Assembly (NCBI RefSeq): GCF_056746865.1
Contig: NZ_CM163382.1
DNA length: 64,000 bases
Direction: 5' to 3' (one strand)
Positions 9,341 to 48,588 of the stretch are shown here, one piece after another (position 1 is the first letter of the stretch; every line of letters starts with the position of its first letter). The notes below the pieces were generated by a model. It made no database searches. It had not been told where the DNA came from and saw only the letters and a list, made by a program, of their open reading frames with translations. The position numbers were made by a program, and so were the translations under genes.

Positions 9341-10387
9341 TTATTTGAGATATTCATCGAAAATGTCGAGTAATTCTTGATGTATACACGGCCATTCCTG
9401 ACCTAAATTGACGGTACACAAGCCAATATCGAAGCCATTAATTTTATAACGATGTTTCACTGCGGTATCTACGTGGGGATATATTAATAATCCCCCTATG
9501 TTTTCGCCATTTTCAGGCTTTAACGACCATAAGTAATTCATCAGTTGATAAAGATTTTGCGAATGAAATTTTTCTGTTCCCATTCGTCGTGAAAAAATGC
9601 TCTTATAGTATTTGGCGTCAACGATAAGTATTTTTTCTGATGAGCGAATGGTGATGTCAGTTTCCATTCGAGGTAACAAATTAAGTGACTGATCCGATAT
9701 ACTCGATGCATCCCATTTTAAATAAGAGCGGGTTGTGTTTGCAGACGTTAATTCACGACGGCAAAATTCATAAAGAAACTTTTGATAAAGTAATGACATC
9801 TCTTTTTCGTTTCTTTCAAAATCATAGAAACGGTAGTGTCCTTTGTTTTGACCTGGAATAGAATTATTGACGATGAATTTGCAGACACTGATAACGAATT
9901 TATAATAACGCGTATTTTTTCCGCCATTCAGATAGCTGAAATGCTGCGGAGTTAAATGAAGAGTGCTAATGCCCGGTAATTTTCTATAAAGTGAACGAGC
10001 TTCATCTCTGATAGTTGAATTTAACTTTTCATGCTTAATTAATATGGCTAATGTGCTTTTTATAATTCGGTTAGCCAGCGTGTCTTCATTAAGCATATCA
10101 AAAGTACTGACGGTTTTCCCATGATTAAGATGGAAGCCGCGTATTGTTTTAGCAAACTCTATTCGCCCTTTGATGCCAGGAATGATCTCGGTATTAGGAT
10201 TGTAATCAAGCTCAAGCCCTCGGCGTGAAAGCTGTAAAACCCCTTTATTTAATACATACCCCAGGATATCAAGAAGATTGTTACCGGGTATGGCTTCAAG
10301 GTTTGCCTGCTTAATTTCCTGTAAATAACCCCATGCATAGGTAAGCATGTAATAGATATTACGGACAGGTATCACGGGCTGTTCCAC
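9341..10387 (-). CDS. mcrC: McrC, specificity/nuclease subunit of the McrBC modification-dependent (type IV) restriction system
   Basis: Translation matches McrC as I recall it (..EQPVIPVRNIYYMLTYAWGYLQEIK..); start taken as GTG at 10387, overlapping the mcrB stop by 1 nt; AT-rich gene. Confidence 0.9.
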   Translation of the reverse strand: MEQPVIPVRNIYYMLTYAWGYLQEIKQANLEAIPGNNLLDILGYVLNKGVLQLSRRGLELDYNPNTEIIPGIKGRIEFAKTIRGFHLNHGKTVSTFDMLNEDTLANRIIKSTLAILIKHEKLNSTIRDEARSLYRKLPGISTLHLTPQHFSYLNGGKNTRYYKFVISVCKFIVNNSIPGQNKGHYRFYDFERNEKEMSLLYQKFLYEFCRRELTSANTTRSYLKWDASSISDQSLNLLPRMETDITIRSSEKILIVDAKYYKSIFSRRMGTEKFHSQNLYQLMNYLWSLKPENGENIGGLLIYPHVDTAVKHRYKINGFDIGLCTVNLGQEWPCIHQELLDIFDEYLK

Positions 10388-11766
10388 TATGAGTCCCCTA
10401 ATAATTTGTTGGTCCATTTCTGTTGTTTATAGGGGTCATCAAAGAAATATTCTTCGAGTAAAGGGGCGATATCCGTCATCACAATTTCATTAAGCCATTG
10501 CGTATCCGGAGAGGTGCCATCTTCCAACCCACAGCAGAAGTAACTATGCCCAATGCGGAATCCTTTCCCAAGGATAGTGGCCTCTTTGCTGATTTCCTGG
10601 TTCAACTCGTTCATTTTTTGGCATAAAGACTCAACAAATGAAGGTTCTGCTTTTTTATTCAGTAAAAAATTCCGGAACTGTGGTGTATCAAAACCTGGCT
10701 CAATATCTATGAAAGAAAATCGTCTGCGTAGGGCATAGTCAACAACGGCCAGAGAGCGATCGGCAGTATTCATTAAACCGATGATATAAACATTCTCCGG
10801 GACATAGAATCGTTCTTCATCGTTTTCGGAGTAGGTTAGGGGAACAGACCAGTTTTCACCTCGTTTATCATGTTCCATTAACATCATCACTTCGCCAAAT
10901 ACTTTACTGAGATTGGCACGATTGATTTCATCTATAATAAAAATATACTTTTTCTCTGGCTGCTCTTTAGCTTGCTGACAAAAATTGTAAAATATGCCGT
11001 CTTTACGTCGGAAGCCGACGCCATTCGGACGATAGCCCTGTATAAAATCCTCATAGCTATAGGATTGATGGAACTGAACCATATTGACGCGTTGCGGAGC
11101 CTTTTCTCCTGTCAGCAAGTAAGCCAGACGGCGTGCAACAAAGGTTTTTCCAACGCCGGGCGGCCCCTGGAGGATAATATTTTTTTTGATGGTTAATCGT
11201 TTGAGTATCGTCTCTATTGTGGTTTCAGGGATAAACAAATCATTTAACGCATCTTCCAGACAGTATGATTCAGTTTTTGACATAGGTGGAATAACACTCT
11301 TGCCAGAATTAAATATTAATTTATAGTCGTTGATTATGTTGTCCAGCATAGAGGCAAATCGGGTGTAATCAATACCCTGTGAGACTTTTTGGGAACAGGC
11401 GTAATAGGACTGTCCGTATTTTTTAGGATATACACCCGAAGTTGCCTGAAAATACTCTGCGATTGTTTTAGGTATGTCTGAAGAGAACTGCCATTGGGCA
11501 TGTGGTTCATTCGTGTCGCTTATACCATAAGCCAAAACCAACTCATCAAAATCTTTATAATAGAGAATAACGGGATATATACCGTTAGAAGCTTCCTGAC
11601 CTTCTCCAAGAAATGCAAACCAGGGAATAGACGTAAAATTACCATAACCGAAACTCAATTTTACTCGCAGGTTACGGTAAGACGTTGGATAATCTTTAGT
11701 GGATTGCGAACGTTGTTGCTGTGCTTGCTTAATAAATTTTTCAATCCAGGGTTGAATAGATTCCAT
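10387..11766 (-). CDS. mcrB: McrB, GTP-binding 5-methylcytosine-DNA recognition subunit (AAA+)
   Basis: Translation MESIQPWIEKFIKQAQQQRS.. with Walker A GPPGVGKT; start at the 7th codon of the track ORF (459 aa). Confidence 0.9.
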   Translation of the reverse strand: MESIQPWIEKFIKQAQQQRSQSTKDYPTSYRNLRVKLSFGYGNFTSIPWFAFLGEGQEASNGIYPVILYYKDFDELVLAYGISDTNEPHAQWQFSSDIPKTIAEYFQATSGVYPKKYGQSYYACSQKVSQGIDYTRFASMLDNIINDYKLIFNSGKSVIPPMSKTESYCLEDALNDLFIPETTIETILKRLTIKKNIILQGPPGVGKTFVARRLAYLLTGEKAPQRVNMVQFHQSYSYEDFIQGYRPNGVGFRRKDGIFYNFCQQAKEQPEKKYIFIIDEINRANLSKVFGEVMMLMEHDKRGENWSVPLTYSENDEERFYVPENVYIIGLMNTADRSLAVVDYALRRRFSFIDIEPGFDTPQFRNFLLNKKAEPSFVESLCQKMNELNQEISKEATILGKGFRIGHSYFCCGLEDGTSPDTQWLNEIVMTDIAPLLEEYFFDDPYKQQKWTNKLLGDS

Positions 11767-11927
11767 AAGATATGCCTTCCTCATTGCTAAGCCTCTATTA
11801 TCGCTTTCGCAACGTACTGAAACAATAGATTTTTACTGCAAAATCAGACTGGTAAATATTTACTGAGGGGGAAAGTTTCTATTGAGTCAGTGGAAGGCTC
11901 CCGGTGGTTAACCGGGAGTAAACGCTG

Positions 11928-12269
11928 TTACGCGACTTTCTGTTTACCGGCAATCACTCCAATAAACGCCTGCACCTGCTTTTGTTTACGCGCCGACAGT
12001 TTGCACACCTGGCGTAGCGACTGCATCAGTTCGCTCTCCTCGGCGGCGGGTGGTTGGGCGGTGAGGACAATACAGCCTTCCATCACTTTGACATCTACCG
12101 CCGTGCCAGTGGCAAAACCGGCGGCTTCCAGCCACTGACCTTTCAGGGTGATGGCGGGAATACGGCTGTAATCCGGGTAGCGACTCGCATAACCGACGGT
12201 GACATGACGGTTATTTGCCGGGGAGACTTCTGCTTCGAACGGTTGTGCAATAGAATGCGTGTCAGTCAT
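11928..12269 (-). CDS. symE: SymE, SOS-induced type I toxin (AbrB-fold RNA endonuclease-like)
   Basis: Translation [34 protein letters not shown].. (113 aa) inside the 132-aa track ORF. Confidence 0.85.
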
Positions 12270-12340
12270 AACTGCTATTCTCCAGGAATAGTGATTGTGA
12301 TTAGCGATGCGGGTGTGTTGGCGCACATCCGCACCGCGCT
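12255..12340 (+). ncRNA. symR: SymR antisense sRNA (antitoxin of symE), approximate position
   Basis: Established knowledge: SymR is encoded antisense to the symE 5-prime UTR and start codon; ends not determinable from sequence alone. Confidence 0.4.
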
Positions 12341-12342
12341 AA

Positions 12343-12362
12343 ATACCTGTATATATCATCAG
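12343..12362 (-). promoter_or_regulatory. Putative LexA operator (SOS box) in the symE promoter
   Basis: tacCTGTatatatcaTCAGta on + strand, CTGA-N8-ACAG on the symE strand, 7/8 match to the CTGT-N8-ACAG core. Confidence 0.45.
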
Positions 12363-12496
12363 TAAATATGGGGAAAGTCCAGCTAAAAATAGAATAAAAT
12401 GGGCAATTTCTGGAATGATTTAAATATATTTATGTGGGTTATGATTGGCGTGAAATAATAAAAAGCGCACCGGAAAGGTGCGCCAGAAAATAATGT

Positions 12497-13891
12497 TCAG
12501 GATTTTTTACGTGAGGCTTTTTTACCCCCGCTAGCTGCGCGTTCAGCTTTGATTTTTTCCAGCAACGCGGCGGCGCTGTTTTCTCCGCTGATCAAATCCG
12601 GGTTTTCGGCCCGCCACTGGGCGGTAAGTTCACCACGGAACGCTTTTGCCAGGATGGATTGCGTCAGGTTGTTGACGCGGGCTAAGGCGTTGTTGACCTG
12701 TTTTTCTATGGTGTCGGCGTAGGCGAAGAGTTGCTCGACGCGGCGAACGATTTCGGCTTGTTCTTTTACTGGAGGTAATAAAACAACTTGGGATTTGATA
12801 TCTTTTCCTGAAATACCTTTTTGACCAGAAGTTGTTTTCACGCAGTTCATCATTGCATTTCGTGCTGAGGGGGATGAAAAAAATATTTCGATATATTCTG
12901 GTAAAGCATCTTTGGTTAATCGAGCTCGAATAAGTTTATCAGGATATAGCAAATTTTGATGTTGTAATTTTTTCAATAACCCACAAACACCAACAAATTC
13001 TAAACTTCCGTTATAGCGAGTAAATAAAAGATCTCCATCTTGTAATTTGTGGCGGTTTAGTTCACTTTCTGAACATTCTAGAAACCGAATATCGTTTTGA
13101 TCTACATGGCCAGCACGTACAGAACTAATGCGTAGTATTGGATGACCAACACCACTTTCATTTGGCTTTGATGAAAGACCATTACGTAATTCAGTTAAGA
13201 TAGATTCAAAATTTAACTTCTTAAATACAGAATGTTGCGGCTCAAAATTACGCCATTTTTCTGTCAATTTTCCATTAACTGCGCCCCCCAATACCGCTTG
13301 ACGAAAACGTTTCAGGATTTGTGGGATTTGCTCAAAACGTGCTTTGGTGCTGTCTACCTGCGCCAGCAGCGTATCGAGTTTTTCAGCGATGATTTTTTGT
13401 TCGGCAAGTGGTGGGATTGGTATATTTATCAAATCAAAGCTTGCCGGCTTAATATTATTAATATTTGCACCAGCAGAAAGTGATGAAATTTTGTTTCGAT
13501 AAAGAGAAGATTTTGTGAAATGAGCAATAAAACCAGAAAATATAAGTTTTTCAGGACGTAATACACCGCAAAATGCGCCGAAACTACATTCAAATGGTAG
13601 ATGCTGATGTGCGGATTTACCAACTACGGATTTGCTCCCTGATGACATTGCAATAACAATATCTTCAGGAGATATTTTTTGATTTTCTTTAACAAGATTT
13701 TTAGGAACAAAAACCAAGTCCGTAGTATCAAACTTGCCATTCTGAATATTGTTCGCACGGATAAGAGGCAAATAATCATCTTTTAGATAATTTATTGCCT
13801 GCTCTTTTTTATACGTTACTCCTCGGATTAGAGTTGTGACCGTAGATACTGGGGCGATAACCCACCCCTCCGGCAATTTCCCCGCACTCAT
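12497..13891 (-). CDS. hsdS: HsdS, type I restriction-modification specificity subunit (EcoKI family)
   Basis: 464-aa translation MSAGKLPEGWVIAPVSTVTTLIRG..; AT-rich target-recognition regions; stop overlaps hsdM. Confidence 0.9.
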   Translation of the reverse strand: MSAGKLPEGWVIAPVSTVTTLIRGVTYKKEQAINYLKDDYLPLIRANNIQNGKFDTTDLVFVPKNLVKENQKISPEDIVIAMSSGSKSVVGKSAHQHLPFECSFGAFCGVLRPEKLIFSGFIAHFTKSSLYRNKISSLSAGANINNIKPASFDLINIPIPPLAEQKIIAEKLDTLLAQVDSTKARFEQIPQILKRFRQAVLGGAVNGKLTEKWRNFEPQHSVFKKLNFESILTELRNGLSSKPNESGVGHPILRISSVRAGHVDQNDIRFLECSESELNRHKLQDGDLLFTRYNGSLEFVGVCGLLKKLQHQNLLYPDKLIRARLTKDALPEYIEIFFSSPSARNAMMNCVKTTSGQKGISGKDIKSQVVLLPPVKEQAEIVRRVEQLFAYADTIEKQVNNALARVNNLTQSILAKAFRGELTAQWRAENPDLISGENSAAALLEKIKAERAASGGKKASRKKS

Positions 13892-15477
13892 TCCTTCACC
13901 CCACCAAACGCTTCTTCCAGCAACTGACGCTGCAAATCGGCCTCATCGCTCGCCCCCAGTTCACGCATCAGCGCATCCAGTTCAGACAGCGCCTGTACCA
14001 GTTCGCCCATCGCTTCTGCCGCTAATACATCCGGCTCCGGCAGGCTGTCGGCATCAATACTGTCTTTATCTTTCAGCCAGGAGATATCCAGCGAATCGGA
14101 TTTTGCGGTGCGGATCCACTCACGGCTGAACTTGCGCCAGCGGCTGGTAGCAAGATGCTGGTCGGTGTTTTTGTTCTCTTCGCTGTCGGCAACTTCCGTC
14201 TCTTCGGCGTTAAAACTCCATTCACCTTCAGTGCGCGGGCTTAAACCGTGCGGGTCTTCGCCATACACGCGCTCAAACGGCTGCAAATGCTCGTCGGTAA
14301 ACGGTGTGCGCTTGCCGAAACTCGGCATATTGGTACGCAGGTCATACACCCACACGTCGTCGGTGCAGTTCTTATCCTGATGCGGGTTCGCCACTGTGCC
14401 TTTGGTAAAGAACAGCACGTTGGTCTTCACGCCCTGCGCGTAAAAAATACCGGTCGGCAGACGCAGAATGGTGTGCAGATGACACTTATCCATCAGGTCA
14501 CGACGGATGTCGGTGCCTTTGCCGCCTTCAAACAACACGTTATCTGGCACCACCACCGCCGCACGACCGCCGGGATGCAGCGTTTCGATAATATGCTGCA
14601 TAAAGCACAGCTGTTTGTTGCTGGTCGGGTGAACAAAGGTGCGGGTAATGTTGGTGCCTGCGGCGCTGCCAAACGGCGGGTTAGTGGCGACAATATGCGC
14701 CTTCGGCAGGTTTTCACCGTCGCTGCCCAGGGTGTTGCCCAGACGGATTGCGCCGCCGTGGTCGAGGTTGCCTTCAATATCGTGCAGCAGGCAGTTCATC
14801 AGTGCCAGACGACGGGTGCCGGGCACCAGTTCGAGGCCGATAAACGCGCGGTGGATCTGGAAATCCTGCGTGTCGCCATCAAGGTCGTCCAGATCATTGG
14901 TTTGCGACTTAACATAGCGGTCGGCTTCAATCAAAAAGCCCGCCGTACCTGCCGCCGGGTCCTGCACCACTTCACGCGGCTGCGGTTTCAGCAGATGAAT
15001 AATGGTTTTAATCAGCGGACGCGGGGTGAAGTACTGGCCTGCACCAGACTTGGTTTCATTCGCGTTCTTCTGCAACAGCCCTTCGTACATATCGCCGAAG
15101 TCATCGCGCGACTTACCGTGCGCGCCGTTGTACCAGTCCAGCGAATCCATATTGCTGACCAGTGCGGTTATTTGTTTCGGCTCGGTGATGGTGGTACTAA
15201 CATTATGAAAAACTGCCTGTACCAGCTTTTTGTCATCTTCGCCTAAATGCACGAGCATTTTTCGGTAGAACTGCAACTGCTCCTGGCCGATGCGGGATTT
15301 CAGGTCATCCCAGCGGTAACCTTCCGGCAGGTATTCCGCTTCCTGACCGGTCTCTTTACACATTTTCAAAAACAGCAGCGAGGCGAGTTCATTGACGTAG
15401 TTTTGATAGGAAACGCCGCCATCGCGCAGGTTGTCGCACAGCTTCCACAGCTTCGCGACCAGATCGTTATTGTTCAT
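13888..15477 (-). CDS. hsdM: HsdM, type I R-M N6-adenine DNA methyltransferase
   Basis: 529-aa translation with NPPF catalytic motif (..HIVATNPPFGSAAG..) and AdoMet-binding region; 4-nt overlap with hsdS. Confidence 0.92.
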   Translation of the reverse strand: MNNNDLVAKLWKLCDNLRDGGVSYQNYVNELASLLFLKMCKETGQEAEYLPEGYRWDDLKSRIGQEQLQFYRKMLVHLGEDDKKLVQAVFHNVSTTITEPKQITALVSNMDSLDWYNGAHGKSRDDFGDMYEGLLQKNANETKSGAGQYFTPRPLIKTIIHLLKPQPREVVQDPAAGTAGFLIEADRYVKSQTNDLDDLDGDTQDFQIHRAFIGLELVPGTRRLALMNCLLHDIEGNLDHGGAIRLGNTLGSDGENLPKAHIVATNPPFGSAAGTNITRTFVHPTSNKQLCFMQHIIETLHPGGRAAVVVPDNVLFEGGKGTDIRRDLMDKCHLHTILRLPTGIFYAQGVKTNVLFFTKGTVANPHQDKNCTDDVWVYDLRTNMPSFGKRTPFTDEHLQPFERVYGEDPHGLSPRTEGEWSFNAEETEVADSEENKNTDQHLATSRWRKFSREWIRTAKSDSLDISWLKDKDSIDADSLPEPDVLAAEAMGELVQALSELDALMRELGASDEADLQRQLLEEAFGGVKE

Positions 15478-45374: not shown

Positions 45375-45848
45375 TTATACGCGAGGGCGCTTGCGGTACA
45401 ACCATAATCCAGGAATGGAAAGACCGATGGATAACGCACCAACAATTGATGAAGCTGTAAGAAAGTTGGTTAACAGGGTAATCATCAACGGTTCGCTGTA
45501 ACCTAGCTGGCTGATTTTTACCGCCGAAATCATTGCGGTATAAGCCGATATGCCAGGGAACATAGGAATAACAGCCGCCACGGTAAACACTTTCGGATGC
45601 GCCAGATACCAGCGCGACCATTGAATACCAATGGTGCCGACCAGCATAGAAGCCATAAAAGTTGACCACTCAATATTCAGCCCGCTGGTCATTAAGATCA
45701 TTCGGGAACCATGACCTATCGAGCCAAGCAGCGCACACCAGCGTAACGCCCGCACGGGAACGTTGAACACCATCGCAAAGCCGACCGCAGGAATGGCGGC
45801 GAGGATCATATCCTGCGCCAACGCTAACAGAAATTCGATCACACCCAT
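45375..45848 (-). CDS. yjjB: YjjB, ThrE-family inner membrane protein (small subunit; proposed succinate exporter with YjjP)
   Basis: 157-aa hydrophobic protein [31 protein letters not shown].. Confidence 0.8.
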
Positions 45849-46609
45849 CCGCGTAGCCCCCAAATCGTCAGTGCCATTACTACGCCGACGCAGGTAGCCA
45901 GTGTCAGCAGACTGGCGATCGCCCAGCGTGCCAGTCCGGTATTGATGTGGCCTTTAAACATATCGGCGACGGCATTAATCAACGGAAAACCCGGCACCAG
46001 CAGCAGAACGCTGGCGGCCATCGCGATAGTGGGTGTATTGCTGAAAGTGGGAAGTTGCAAAAGCAAACCGGAAATGGTGGTGGCGGCGAAAGCGGTGAGG
46101 CAAAAGTTGATCTGTGGATGAAGATGACGTTGTGCCAGCAGCTGGCGGATATACATCGCGACCGTACTGGCAAAGAAGGTGATGACGGCACCATCCCAGC
46201 CACCTTTATTGAGTTTACAGAAACAGGCGCAAGAAAGGCCGACCATTAAGGCTACCAGCCATCTCGGGTAACGTAATGGCTGAATTTGGCTAAATCGTTT
46301 CTCTACACCTTTGTAATCCAGCAGATGATGCTCCGCCAGAATCACAATGTGCTGGACTTCAGTCACCACATGCATATTAATGCCGCGATCTTGATTTTTT
46401 CGTGTCGATGTCAGGCATTGCCCATCTTTAATAGTTGTCAGCACTATGGCGTTCGAAGAGATAGAACTTTCGACGCTGTCCATTCCCAGCGCCCGACCCA
46501 GTCGTGAGGAAAGCTCATCAACCAACGCGCTTTCCGCACCATGTTGCAAAAGAAATAATCCACACTGGATACAAAGCCGTGTTACGGCTCGCTGTTGCTC
46601 AGTTTGCAT
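45839..46609 (-). CDS. yjjP: YjjP, ThrE-family inner membrane protein (large subunit)
   Basis: ~256-aa membrane protein; overlaps yjjB start by 10 nt. Confidence 0.8.
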
Positions 46610-46672
46610 AACTCGCCCTTTGTCATAGACGTGCTGCGTATTGTTCAGATAATGAGAATCCATTTGTATCAT

Positions 46673-47227
46673 GAAGCACGGTTGTTTTGCGGTAGGTTAA
46701 GATCAAAATTGCGCTGATTAATCCTGGTTATCGGGAGAAGCTCGGTGATAAAAAGCGAATTATCTCTCGTCGCAAATAAATTATCACATGAATATTATCA
46801 CTATAATGAATTTATTGTTTAGCCTTTACGAATCAGGATAAAAGATAACTGGGCGCGTTTTTTAATTTTTACAAGTTAAAACTATCAGATTTTATTGAAT
46901 AAATATTGATTGTGTGATTTTGCATTCTACTGGAAGGGATATCAGTTAATTATAAATTAAATGAATGAGAATTCTGTTTTTCATTAAGTATTTCTAACAA
47001 CTTAATGTAGATATTTTAAATGTCTCCAGGCTATTTCACCAGGTTATCATTTGATGCTAACCTTCTGACACATGCAGTGGAGTTGTTGTGCAGCAGGAGT
47101 ATGCTGATATGAAAGTGAATGCTAAGGATAATTTATTCGCTTAATCTATTAATTTGCTGGAAACATTTAAGGAATGAATATCCTGAATAAACCATCATAA
47201 TTTTTAGACAGTGGATGTGGAGGAAAT
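46673..47227. promoter_or_regulatory. AT-rich divergent control region of yjjP and yjjQ-bglJ (H-NS-silenced, LeuO-activated per established knowledge)
   Basis: ~550 bp visibly AT-rich with many A/T tracts between divergent genes. Confidence 0.6.
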
Positions 47228-47953
47228 ATGTTGCCAGGATGCTGCAAAAATGGAATTGTTATCAGTAAAATACCTGTTATGCAAGCAGGGTTAAAAGAGG
47301 TCATGAGGACTCACTTCCCTGAATATGAAATAATATCCAGCGCCTCTGCGGAGGACCTTACCTTATTACAATTACGTCGTTCCGGATTAGTCATTGCTGA
47401 TTTAGCCGGTGAAAGTGAAGATCCACGTTCTGTTTGTGAACATTATTATTCTTTAATCTCACAATATCGGGAAATTCACTGGGTTTTCATGGTGTCACGC
47501 TCCTGGTATTCCCAGGCAGTAGAACTGCTTATGTGCCCTACGGCGACGTTATTGTCTGATGTTGAACCCATTGAGAATCTGGTCAAGACCGTACGTTCCG
47601 GCAATACGCACGCAGAGCGTATCAGCGCCATGCTGACCTCTCCGGCAATGACTGAAACTCATGATTTTAGCTATCGCTCCGTCATTCTCACTCTTTCAGA
47701 GCGCAAGGTACTGCGGCTATTAGGTAAAGGATGGGGCATCAACCAGATAGCTTCATTGCTTAAGAAAAGTAATAAAACTATCAGCGCCCAAAAAAACAGT
47801 GCGATGCGTCGACTGGCAATTCACAGCAACGCTGAAATGTATGCATGGATAAATAGCGCACAGGGTGCAAGAGAACTTAACTTGCCTTCTGTTTATGGAG
47901 ATGCCGCAGAATGGAACACAGCCGAATTAAGAAGAGAAATGTCGCACTCATAG
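47228..47953 (+). CDS. yjjQ: YjjQ, LuxR/FixJ-type transcriptional regulator
   Basis: 241 aa with C-terminal LuxR HTH (..[41 protein letters not shown]..). Confidence 0.85.
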
Positions 47954-48588
47954 AAAAATGCGTCATGAGTAGTATCGGTATTGAGAGTTTATTCAGAAAG
48001 TTTGCGGGTAACCCTTATAAGCTCCATACCTATACCAGTCAGGAGTCATTTCAGGATGCCATGTCGCGGATCTCGTTTGCGGCGGTCATTTTTTCTTTTT
48101 CTGCCATGAGAGGTGAGCGTAGAGAGGGATTATCTTGCCTGACTGAACTGGCGATTAAGTTTCCGCGTACCCGGCGTTTAGTTATTGCGGATGATGATAT
48201 TGAAGCTCGGCTGATCGGCTCATTGTCGCCATCACCGCTGGACGGTGTATTAAGTAAAGCGTCAACGCTGGAGATTTTTCATCAGGAACTCTTTTTGTCA
48301 TTAAATGGTGTACGTCAGGCGACCGACCGACTGAACAATCAGTGGTACATTAATCAAAGCCGAACGCTAAGCCCGACGGAGAGAGAAATATTGCGCTTTA
48401 TGTCGCGTGGCTACTCAATGACACAAATTGCCGAGCAGCTTAAACGCAATATCAAAACGATCCGTGCACATAAATTTAATGTGATGTCGAAACTGGGCGT
48501 AAGTTCTGATGCAGGGTTGTTGGAGGCCGCAGATATTCTGTTATGTATGCGGCATTGCGAAGCAAGTAATGTGTTGCATCCCTATTAA
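47911..48588 (+). CDS. bglJ: BglJ, LuxR-type regulator (RcsB partner, bgl activation)
   Basis: 225 aa with C-terminal LuxR HTH (..[43 protein letters not shown]..); overlaps yjjQ by 43 nt in another frame. Confidence 0.85.

Follow-up and report, generated by a model that had tools for sequence, protein, structure and literature searches.

The AT-rich gap between yjjP and yjjQ-bglJ of Escherichia coli, very probably a known H-NS- and LeuO-controlled regulatory region in three parts

We consider here what occupies the unusually long AT-rich DNA between the divergent yjjP and yjjQ-bglJ genes, and whether it acts as a silenced control region or also hides a small gene or RNA. It lies in a window of 64,000 nucleotides (the whole stretch of DNA analysed, from contig NZ_CM163382.1 of RefSeq assembly GCF_056746865.1), which is E. 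coli chromosome, and the RefSeq annotation confirms the two divergent flanks named in the initial annotation. A 1,101-bp query from the window (46400-47500) shares 100% identity with E. coli FDAARGOS_497, and 5,424 of the 5,426 complete genomes of the species contain a match to it. The yjjP/yjjQ region is disrupted in roughly 28 E. coli genomes, one of which was inspected. No feature is annotated between the two genes in RefSeq, either in 30 sampled records or in K-12 MG1655. With a probability of about 0.9, the gap is the known shared regulatory region of yjjP-yjjB and yjjQ-bglJ, controlled by H-NS and LeuO and arranged in three parts (Table 1). For this model, the present analysis supplies the base composition, the pattern of conservation, the elements of the promoters and the lack of any hidden gene, and H-NS repression, LeuO activation, in vitro binding of H-NS and RNA polymerase, the yjjP transcription start site (TSS) and the effects of insertion sequences (IS) come from published papers. 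The gap is real, ordinary and already known: silencing by H-NS and its reversal by LeuO have been published for it, and it belongs to the feedback circuit of LeuO and BglJ-RcsB.

Table 1. Features of the yjjP/yjjQ-bglJ locus, in positions of the window.
Feature	Position	Strand	Basis or remark
yjjP CDS	45839-46609	-	256 aa, ThrE family; leading gene of yjjP-yjjB; putative subunit of a succinate exporter; RefSeq
63 bp read as yjjP coding by the initial annotation (ATG 46672-46670), actually 5' UTR and core promoter	46610-46672	-	Indels, TSS; RefSeq ATG at 46609
yjjP-proximal conserved zone (promoter module)	46610-46728		Conservation against neutral
yjjP TSS, class I	46656-46659	-	47-50 nt leader; RVS_(I) 4600928-4600931 in U00096.2 (PMC4681348 supplement)
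yjjP extended -10, TGATACAAA	46663-46671	-	Correct distance to TSS; conserved offset
TTGATC hexamer, about -42 to -47 from the yjjP TSS	46701-46706	-	Invariant; contains a GATC Dam site; resembles an FNR half-site
Span of three K-12 gut-adaptive IS sites (IS1 ~46720, IS2 ~46794, IS5 ~46862)	46720-46862		PMC5094792
Variable AT-rich core, proposed H-NS nucleation platform	46729-46975		Conservation, AT profile, H-NS near-matches, SELEX
yjjQ-proximal conserved zone (yjjQ promoter or promoters, regulator sites, leader)	46976-47227		Conservation against neutral
30-codon ATG ORF (MSPGYFTRLSFDANLLTHAVELLCSRSMLI), unsupported small-ORF candidate	47020-47112	+	Frameshifted in one of 6 Escherichia clades, open in the other 5
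Predicted sigma-70 yjjQ-bglJ promoter, CTGATA-17-GATAAT	47104-47132	+	Promoter scan; predicted TSS near 47139
yjjQ Shine-Dalgarno, GGAGG	47219-47223	+	GGAG invariant in 23 genera-level sequences
yjjQ CDS	47228-47953	+	RefSeq
yjjQ-bglJ operon, LuxR/GerE-type regulators	47228-48588	+	RefSeq; operon table PMC10392735

As annotated, the gap (46610-47227) is 618 bp long with 67.3% AT. The initial annotation had described it as much longer and more AT-rich than the other intergenic regions of the window, and it does rank first in length among the 36 intergenic gaps (the runner-up being 518 bp) and is the most AT-rich stretch of its size at 67-68% AT, against mean AT contents of 55.2% for intergenic DNA, 47.9% for coding DNA and 48.6% for the whole window. 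An AT content this high is reached by just 0.24% of 555-bp windows, the richest of which (46748-47302, 69.2% AT) overlaps the locus. The far shorter hpaG/hpaR (271 bp) and fhuF/yjjZ (140 bp) gaps equal it in AT content, at 67.9%. The A/T tracts that had also been pointed out are a matter of composition only: the AT-richness stands, but there is no excess of tracts, with 12 homopolymer runs of at least 4 compared with 10.5 +/- 2.8 in composition-matched shuffles, and no helical (~10-11 bp) phasing, the AA/TT autocorrelation being at most 0.08 at lags from 5 to 35. Phased A-tract curved DNA in the gap is ruled out on these two grounds.

The span originally given for the region, 46673-47227 (555 bp, 68.1% AT), is correct at its right end, but its left end was set by the ATG of the longest open reading frame and belongs instead at 46610. 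We treat 46610-46672 as non-coding because in our alignment it carries 1-nt indels in Escherichia sister clades and because the yjjP TSS lies downstream of that ATG; the gap is to be taken as 618 bp since the upstream 'start codon' overlaps the yjjP -10 element. The abstract of Stratmann, Madhusudan and Schnetz 2008 (J Bacteriol 190:926) reportedly gives the region the same length of 555 bp, and is said to place H-NS binding at its centre. The K-12 region is the same locus with the same flanking genes and nothing essential differs, the current annotation and the TSS together shifting the yjjP start by 63 bp and giving the 618-bp gap. In K-12 the gap corresponds to NC_000913.3 4602859-4603476. 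The two gaps are collinear and without indels, with identities of 100% in the yjjP-proximal part, 92% in the centre and 99.6% in the yjjQ-proximal part, such that about 8% of positions in the central zone of the source strain differ from K-12. The offset between U00096.2 and window coordinates was confirmed by the breseq-style distances that separate the IS sites from the starts of yjjP and yjjQ, together with this indel-free alignment.

The yjjP end of the gap is a promoter module, with an extended -10 and no -35. Of 77 Enterobacteriaceae sequences, 55 have TG.TA[ACT]A at the offset of the extended -10, and the remainder carry GGTAAAAGT in its place. The zone as a whole is 86-88% identical to three deep Escherichia clades, compared with 60-66% at four-fold degenerate sites, and no other part of the gap can be aligned by similarity to several loci outside Escherichia, in this case five from Citrobacter/Salmonella. 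The module is older than the long AT-rich part and independent of it, and is old within the Enterobacteriaceae. We note separately that C. koseri has weak similarity along the whole gap. The promoter serves a transcript in which yjjB and yjjP are tabulated as one unit (PMC10392735), and dRNA-seq finds it active in exponentially growing cells with a strong class I TSS (PMC4681348), so that silencing of yjjP is at most partial.

The core behaves quite differently. It is only 53-55% identical to the deep Escherichia clades, which equals or falls short of the neutral level (60-66% at four-fold sites), and in a 40-bp profile the AT maximum is at 46770-47009, with 70-80% AT. Some 250 bp thus keep their composition while the sequence drifts about neutrally, a pattern compatible with a silencing platform and one in which hidden genes could hardly be accommodated. 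The high-affinity H-NS motif is absent from the gap at up to one mismatch; near-matches with two mismatches lie at 46809 and 46889, and such near-matches are about 5-fold denser in the gap than elsewhere in the window, which we attribute to the AT content. With neither a motif within one mismatch nor phased A-tract curvature to mark it, the nucleation site is placed by composition alone. H-NS and the RpoD holoenzyme both bind the yjjP/yjjQ spacer in vitro in genomic SELEX (PMC3946193). The repression of yjjQ-bglJ by H-NS and its activation by LeuO, which the initial annotation had taken from established knowledge, are stated in the literature (PMC5025477, PMC3950696, PMC4264507), as are the binding of LeuO and its relief of the repression (PMC5025477, PMC4264507, PMC12893673). 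Consistent with silencing, a yjjQ TSS is not listed in exponential-phase dRNA-seq (PMC4681348).

Constraint returns on the yjjQ side of the core, where the conserved zone is 80-85% identical to the deep Escherichia clades as compared with the 60-66% neutral level, and a block at 46986-47025 is nearly invariant within Escherichia. The predicted yjjQ-bglJ promoter is identical in sequence to that in Table 1 of PMC3946193, and its GGATAA(T/A) -10 is common to Escherichia, Citrobacter and Salmonella. The genes downstream are low in GC (44.6% for yjjQ and 45.3% for bglJ). Autoregulation by BglJ-RcsB at the gap was considered and set aside, the gap being missing from the published top genome-wide BglJ-RcsB matches.

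A long AT-rich gap recurs at 53 Enterobacteriaceae loci in which yjjP and yjjQ are adjacent, measuring 387-709 bp with 56-68% AT between flanks of 44-55% AT, and its sequence is not conserved among them despite this recurrence. At five yjjP loci without yjjQ the gaps are 110-365 bp, and the two in Enterobacteriaceae are just 52-56% AT; on this comparison, which is based on those five loci, the long AT-rich part accompanies yjjQ-bglJ. One could ask if such a gap is instead what decay has left of genes that once separated yjjP from yjjQ, since inserts do occur there, of ~2.6 kb in 20 of 80 loci and ~1.8 kb in three more, carrying pobA and an HpaA-like AraC regulator in Klebsiella, Kluyvera, Raoultella and some Citrobacter. 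However, tblastn of the insert ORFs against the E. coli gap gives chance-level matches only (E=0.048 at best, for a target of 831 bp), six-frame translation of the gap shows no profile-level similarity to pobA or pobR, the AT content is 67% in the gap compared with 45-53% in the inserts, and genera without the insert have gaps of 390-710 bp throughout. An origin from pobA and the AraC regulator is rejected given the tblastn result, and we find the remnant explanation barely credible.

The initial annotation had further suggested that the gap is large enough to hide a small ORF or an sRNA, and neither suggestion is borne out. The best case for an unannotated small protein gene is the ORF at 47020-47112, which might act as a yjjQ uORF once silencing is lifted: it has an ATG start, sits in the constrained yjjQ-proximal zone and remains open at 30 codons in five of six Escherichia-clade sequences, and ribosome-profiling surveys would have missed it because the locus is silent in the laboratory. 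But it is frameshifted in Escherichia sp. E1V33, its peptide is only 50-53% identical where the DNA is ~84% identical, and it lacks a third-position excess, as substitutions at codon positions 1/2/3 number 4/6-8/5. Its best Shine-Dalgarno match is only 3/6 to AGGAGG (the best upstream of any candidate small ORF in the gap being 4/6), no alignable counterpart lies outside Escherichia, there is no annotation for it in 30 sampled RefSeq records or MG1655, and the exact peptide is missing among ~15 billion called proteins, a collection from which very short ORFs are possibly excluded. More generally, no ORF of at least 10 codons is intact in all six Escherichia clades, the others, like that at 47020-47112, being broken in at least one of them, and none in the gap shows coding-type conservation; with no called protein on record and a near-neutral core, we regard a small protein gene as highly improbable. 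It is likewise a long shot that the derepressed yjjQ-proximal zone would yield a lineage-restricted product, such as 47020-47112 translated as a uORF ahead of yjjQ-bglJ.

A small regulatory RNA or other independent transcript encoded in the gap is similarly very unlikely. Promoter-like sites in the gap number 8 as compared with 3.9 +/- 1.9 in shuffles, so that hexamer pairs occur at about twice the shuffle frequency, with several directed into the gap, and fold z-scores are mildly negative around 46990-47114. Cryptic promoters are known in AT-rich H-NS-bound DNA, and we counted this in favour of such a transcript. An Rfam 15 scan of the gap (E<=10), however, returns no family better than E=5, with just two eukaryotic snoRNA noise matches; there are no terminator-like sites on either strand of 46400-47500, and the fold-energy minimum, z -2.3 across 44 windows, is what chance predicts. 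RNAalifold finds no covariation-supported structure in the gap, the plus strand giving -11.2 kcal/mol with two compensatory pairs that both derive from one clade split, and the minus strand -1.3 kcal/mol, and the central zone is unconstrained. The initial annotation had proposed dRNA-seq as a check for transcription start sites, and in the one exponential-phase dataset consulted (PMC4681348) the sole TSS listed in the gap is that of yjjP itself. Cryptic unstable transcripts could possibly arise from the gap in an hns mutant, and these would not amount to a gene.

We therefore return to the shared H-NS- and LeuO-controlled regulatory region, for which a plausible course of events can be proposed. 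Most likely, H-NS would nucleate on the AT core and from this platform spread or bridge to both promoters, and the resulting complex would silence yjjQ-bglJ nearly completely and dampen yjjP, at whose promoter a regulator may be bound at TTGATC. LeuO binding in the region would remodel the H-NS complex and permit yjjQ-bglJ transcription, and leuO is activated in return by BglJ-RcsB. Adaptive IS insertions isolated in the mouse gut raise yjjP expression 2-fold (PMC5094792, PMC7064181). They are at 4600992, 4601066 and 4601134 in NC_000913.2 (PMC5094792 supplementary tables), and in window coordinates all three map upstream of the yjjP TSS. Their location between the yjjP promoter and the remaining AT-rich gap suggests how they act, and we infer that they uncouple yjjP from the AT core; insertions at this place increase yjjP expression and are under selection in the mouse gut.

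The TTGATC hexamer upstream of the putative succinate exporter is an invariant element and a candidate site for a binding factor. All 77 of 77 Enterobacteriaceae sequences carry it at a constant spacing of 34-35 nt from the extended -10, and it is retained in Shimwellia and Cedecea, neither of which has yjjQ next to yjjP. The proposal that a factor genuinely binds it is tentative, and we give it somewhat less than even odds; the hexamer may presumably serve as operator for a hitherto undescribed regulator of the yjjPB exporter, and we rank this operator reading as more likely than the lineage-restricted product considered above. The arrangement recalls class II promoters of the FNR/CRP family, in which TTGAT-N4-ATCAA is centred at -41.5: the putative 14-bp yjjP site centres at 46699.5, which is -40.5 to -43.5 from the TSS, the promoter likewise has an extended -10 and no -35, and succinate, the putative substrate, is an anaerobic fermentation product. 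It differs from an FNR site in that the second half-site lacks conservation (about two of five positions, consensus.cC.g), and in that the invariance extends to the C following TTGAT, a position left unspecified by the FNR consensus. The 8/10 match of the full site in E. coli occurs at chance frequency (34 observed compared with 33 expected), and no paper in the searchable literature links yjjP to FNR. An FNR site was accordingly rejected even though the first half-site and the position fit, and sigma-54, IHF, CRP, ArcA and -35 hexamer assignments of TTGATC were also dismissed by eye, as either spacing or sequence is unfit.

A close parallel is the upstream silencer of the bgl operon. Like the yjjP/yjjQ gap, the bgl silencer is AT-rich, repressed by H-NS and relieved by LeuO, and an upstream IS insertion raises expression in both systems (PMC9678765, PMC2753651, PMC5094792); the bgl operon is also activated by BglJ-RcsB. 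There are differences, however, in that bgl is CRP-dependent and has a further H-NS site downstream, within bglG, whereas at yjjP/yjjQ two divergent operons use one AT-rich core, and the effect of IS insertion on yjjP is a modest 2-fold rise rather than an off-to-on switch.

The DNA between the divergent genes yjjP and yjjQ-bglJ (46610-47227, 618 bp, 67.3% AT) is longer than any other intergenic gap in the window (36 have at least 20 bp; the runner-up has 518 bp), and the initial annotation's observation of a long AT-rich region here is real and quantitatively sound. The interval that it delimited, 46673-47227, has 555 bp and 68.1% AT; pooled intergenic DNA in the window is 55.2% AT and coding DNA 47.9%. 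That it is more AT-rich than other gaps holds in that only 0.24% of 555-bp windows equal it, the richest (46748-47302, 69.2% AT) itself overlapping the locus and the next richest region lying in mcrC (65.9%), but the hpaG/hpaR (271 bp) and fhuF/yjjZ (140 bp) gaps, which are far shorter, are equally AT-rich. The A/T tracts described there are present, although their number is no more than composition predicts (12 runs of at least four A or T versus 10.5 +/- 2.8 in shuffles), and we see no helical phasing of them within the gap. AT content is maximal at 46770-47009 (70-80%), with a second patch at 47130-47209 and a less AT-rich island at 47050-47129. The runner-up gap, at 58123-58640 between the convergent yjjV and yjjW, is GC-rich for intergenic DNA (40% AT), repetitive extragenic elements being one possibility, and the next most AT-rich stretches, 60-66% AT over 555 bp, lie in that part of the restriction-gene cluster which holds mcrBC, symE and hsdS (9500-13900).

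Composition and length of the gap are conserved and its sequence is not. In a scan anchored on YjjQ with one genome per species, yjjP and yjjQ are directly divergent in 53 of the 80 loci, with gaps of 387-709 bp and 56-68% AT versus 44-55% in the flanks, and outside Escherichia the gap sequence is essentially unalignable; weak similarity persists only over the ~100 bp adjoining yjjP, in five loci from Citrobacter or Salmonella, and, in C. koseri, over most of the gap. Within Escherichia, an alignment of the window with K-12 and four lineages at greater distance, MOD1-EC7003 and E1V33 (both Escherichia sp.), SCPM-O-B-8794 and E. whittamii, divides the gap into three zones (see table). As a neutral yardstick, identity to the three deepest lineages at four-fold degenerate positions in yjjP and yjjQ is 60-66%; the two outer zones exceed this and are thus constrained, and the central zone, AT-rich in every lineage aligned, drifts at about the neutral rate. 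Constant composition and length with changing sequence are what a nucleation platform for an AT-reading protein would show, unlike a gene.

Features of the yjjP/yjjQ locus
Feature	Window position	Strand	Detail
yjjP	45839-46609	-	RefSeq annotation
yjjQ	47228-47953	+	RefSeq annotation
bglJ	47911-48588		RefSeq annotation
Extended -10, TGnTA(c/a)AA	46671-46663	-	same offset in 55/77; right spacing to mapped TSS
TTGATC	46706-46701	-	77/77 Enterobacteriaceae sequences; 34-35 nt upstream of the TG, ~45 bp upstream of TSS
yjjP-proximal zone	46610-46728		86-88% identity to three deepest lineages
Central zone	46729-46975		53-55% identity to three deepest lineages
yjjQ-proximal zone	46976-47227		80-85% identity to three deepest lineages
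Predicted yjjQ promoter, CTGATA-17-GATAAT	47104-47132	+	promoter scan
IS1 insertion	~46720		4600992; ~61 bp upstream of yjjP TSS (PMC5094792 tables)
IS2 insertion	~46794		4601066; ~135 bp upstream of yjjP TSS (PMC5094792 tables)
IS5 insertion	~46862		4601134; ~203 bp upstream of yjjP TSS (PMC5094792 tables)
~2.6-kb insert			comparison loci L011-L014, L028, L029, L032, L037, L043, L046, L049, L063, L068, L069, L073, L077-L079, L084, L085
~1.8-kb insert			comparison loci L033-L035

Two promoter elements beside yjjP emerge from an alignment of 24 genus-level sequences and were then sought in the full set of 77: an extended -10 and an invariant TTGATC, the latter shared by comparison loci L006-L085 and L089-L091. 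Dependence on yjjQ was probed with yjjP loci from further taxa. Shimwellia and Cedecea, in which no yjjQ is adjacent, keep both elements at unchanged distance in short gaps of unremarkable AT content (365 bp, 52% AT; 110 bp, 55.5% AT), and therefore the promoter module belongs to yjjP. Cronobacter, with a LuxR-type pair and a 514-bp gap of 59% AT, also has TTGATC; it is absent from the 159-220 bp gaps of Edwardsiella, Obesumbacterium and Enterobacillus, where yjjPB lies in another genomic context. The five loci without yjjQ suggest that the long AT-rich stretch accompanies yjjQ-bglJ. About 2.6 kb separate yjjP and yjjQ in 20 of the 80 loci and about 1.8 kb in three, and the module still adjoins yjjP in these. 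The larger insert carries pobA (4-hydroxybenzoate 3-monooxygenase; TIGR02360, 651 bits, cut-off 539) and an AraC-type regulator, an arrangement seen in Klebsiella, Kluyvera, Raoultella, Intestinirhabdus and the C. amalonaticus/sedlakii group; Pseudocitrobacter has pobA alone. No remnant of either gene was found in the E. coli gap by tblastn.

The module also bears on the left boundary, which the initial annotation had placed at 46673, next to the ATG (46672-46670) of the longest yjjP open reading frame of 277 codons. The 63 bp that separate this ATG from the RefSeq start (46609) do not code for protein, because they contain 1-nt indels in Escherichia sister clades, the ATG overlaps the extended -10, and a class I start site mapped to the reverse strand (4600928-4600931 of U00096.2; Romero et al. 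2014, PMC4681348) falls downstream of it, at 46656-46659. The coordinate conversion is secure, since the window aligns with K-12 without indels through the gap and a breseq-style annotation gives 4600992 distances of -111 to yjjP and -508 to yjjQ (PMC5094792). The 277-codon version (45839-46672, minus strand) is widespread in automatic calls, a 277-residue cluster (P0001) having 2,958 member sequences, and the mis-called start is therefore common in public data.

TTGATC includes a GATC Dam site and resembles an FNR half-site, and FNR would be a sensible regulator of yjjP as a putative succinate exporter gene. However, conservation does not extend to the second half-site (consensus.cC.g), matches as good as that in E. 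coli (8 of 10) are about as frequent in the window as chance predicts (34 versus 33 expected), and the searchable literature holds no link between yjjP and FNR; we regard TTGATC as a conserved element and do not class it as an FNR site. The speculation that the gap hides a small open reading frame or sRNA finds no support. No Rfam match is better than E=5, no terminator-like site occurs in the scanned region, and no fold energy in 100-nt windows on either strand is beyond chance (minimum z -2.3 over 44 windows). RNAalifold gives -11.2 kcal/mol for the plus strand of the constrained block 46986-47142 and -1.3 kcal/mol for the minus strand, with two compensatory pairs on the plus strand, both from one clade split. 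Every reading frame of at least 10 codons is broken in one or more of the six Escherichia lineages, none of these candidates in the gap has a good Shine-Dalgarno sequence, and a search of ~15 billion called proteins for five candidate peptides found none of them. The best, of 30 codons (47020-47112), stays open in five lineages but has a frameshift in the sixth; its peptide identity is 50-53% where the DNA is ~84% identical, and substitutions of 4, 6-8 and 5 at codon positions 1, 2 and 3 are not a coding pattern. At a silent locus, a lineage-restricted, conditionally expressed product could be present.

The primary study of this region, by Stratmann et al. in 2008, reportedly gives the intergenic region as 555 bp, and is said to place H-NS binding at its centre, distal to both promoters, and LeuO sites both at the centre and distal to the promoters of yjjQ, one of them overlapping that of yjjP. 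[quoted passage not shown] The predicted yjjQ promoter is identical to the sequence listed for yjjQ-bglJ among the RpoD-holoenzyme SELEX sites of Shimada et al. 2014, and the yjjP/yjjQ spacer is flagged with an H-NS SELEX site (PMC3946193). The -10 of this promoter, GGATAA(T/A), is kept in Escherichia, Citrobacter and Salmonella, beyond which conservation on this side is limited to a Shine-Dalgarno GGAG and the start codon. The exponential-phase dRNA-seq list that holds the yjjP start site contains none for yjjQ (PMC4681348), which fits silencing.

Recurrent beneficial IS insertions in the gap were described by the Gordo laboratory in K-12 colonising the mouse gut, with yjjP expression up ~2-fold aerobically in one IS clone (PMC5094792, PMC7064181). 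The IS1, IS2 and IS5 sites (see table) are all upstream of the yjjP start site; they therefore separate the promoter from the remainder of the AT-rich gap and leave the TTGATC/-10 module intact. They may loosen the coupling of yjjP to the proposed silencing platform; alternatively, the effect could come from an outward-reading IS promoter. In a mouse-gut derivative of K-12 lineage (L002, O16:H48, NZ_CP043199.1, 2439-3209), yjjP is an annotated pseudogene with an internal stop, which contrasts with gut-adaptive alleles that raise its expression.

The gene identities assumed at the outset agree with RefSeq annotation of an identical record, E. coli FDAARGOS_497 (100% identity over 46400-47500, 1,101 bp), which has the order dnaC, dnaT, yjjB, yjjP, gap, yjjQ, bglJ, fhuF, yjjZ and the leuV/P/Q tRNA genes, and with K-12 MG1655, where the order is identical and no feature is annotated between yjjP and yjjQ. 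GC content is 44.6% in yjjQ and 45.3% in bglJ versus 51.5% in yjjP. Of 5,426 complete E. coli genomes, 5,424 contain the 1,101-bp query, in most cases with 95-99% identity. A contiguous match is absent in 28 of the 5,424, and in the one inspected, a cat isolate (L086, NZ_CP180597.1, 5183-6380), an IS1-associated deletion has removed the gap together with yjjQ and a 5' portion of bglJ, an IS1 copy taking their place. The region 46610-47227 has served in E. coli source tracking as a marker informative about the host, with a sheep-associated biomarker of 33% sensitivity and 98% specificity (PMC11267920), a use that fits the fast-evolving central zone. Escherichia albertii NBRC 107761 (L010, ~2183-2341) has a 572-bp deletion inside yjjP (46000-46571 missing), with the intergenic region and yjjQ kept, and in the present strain the MFS transporter gene lgoT (37110-38471) is an annotated pseudogene with an internal stop.
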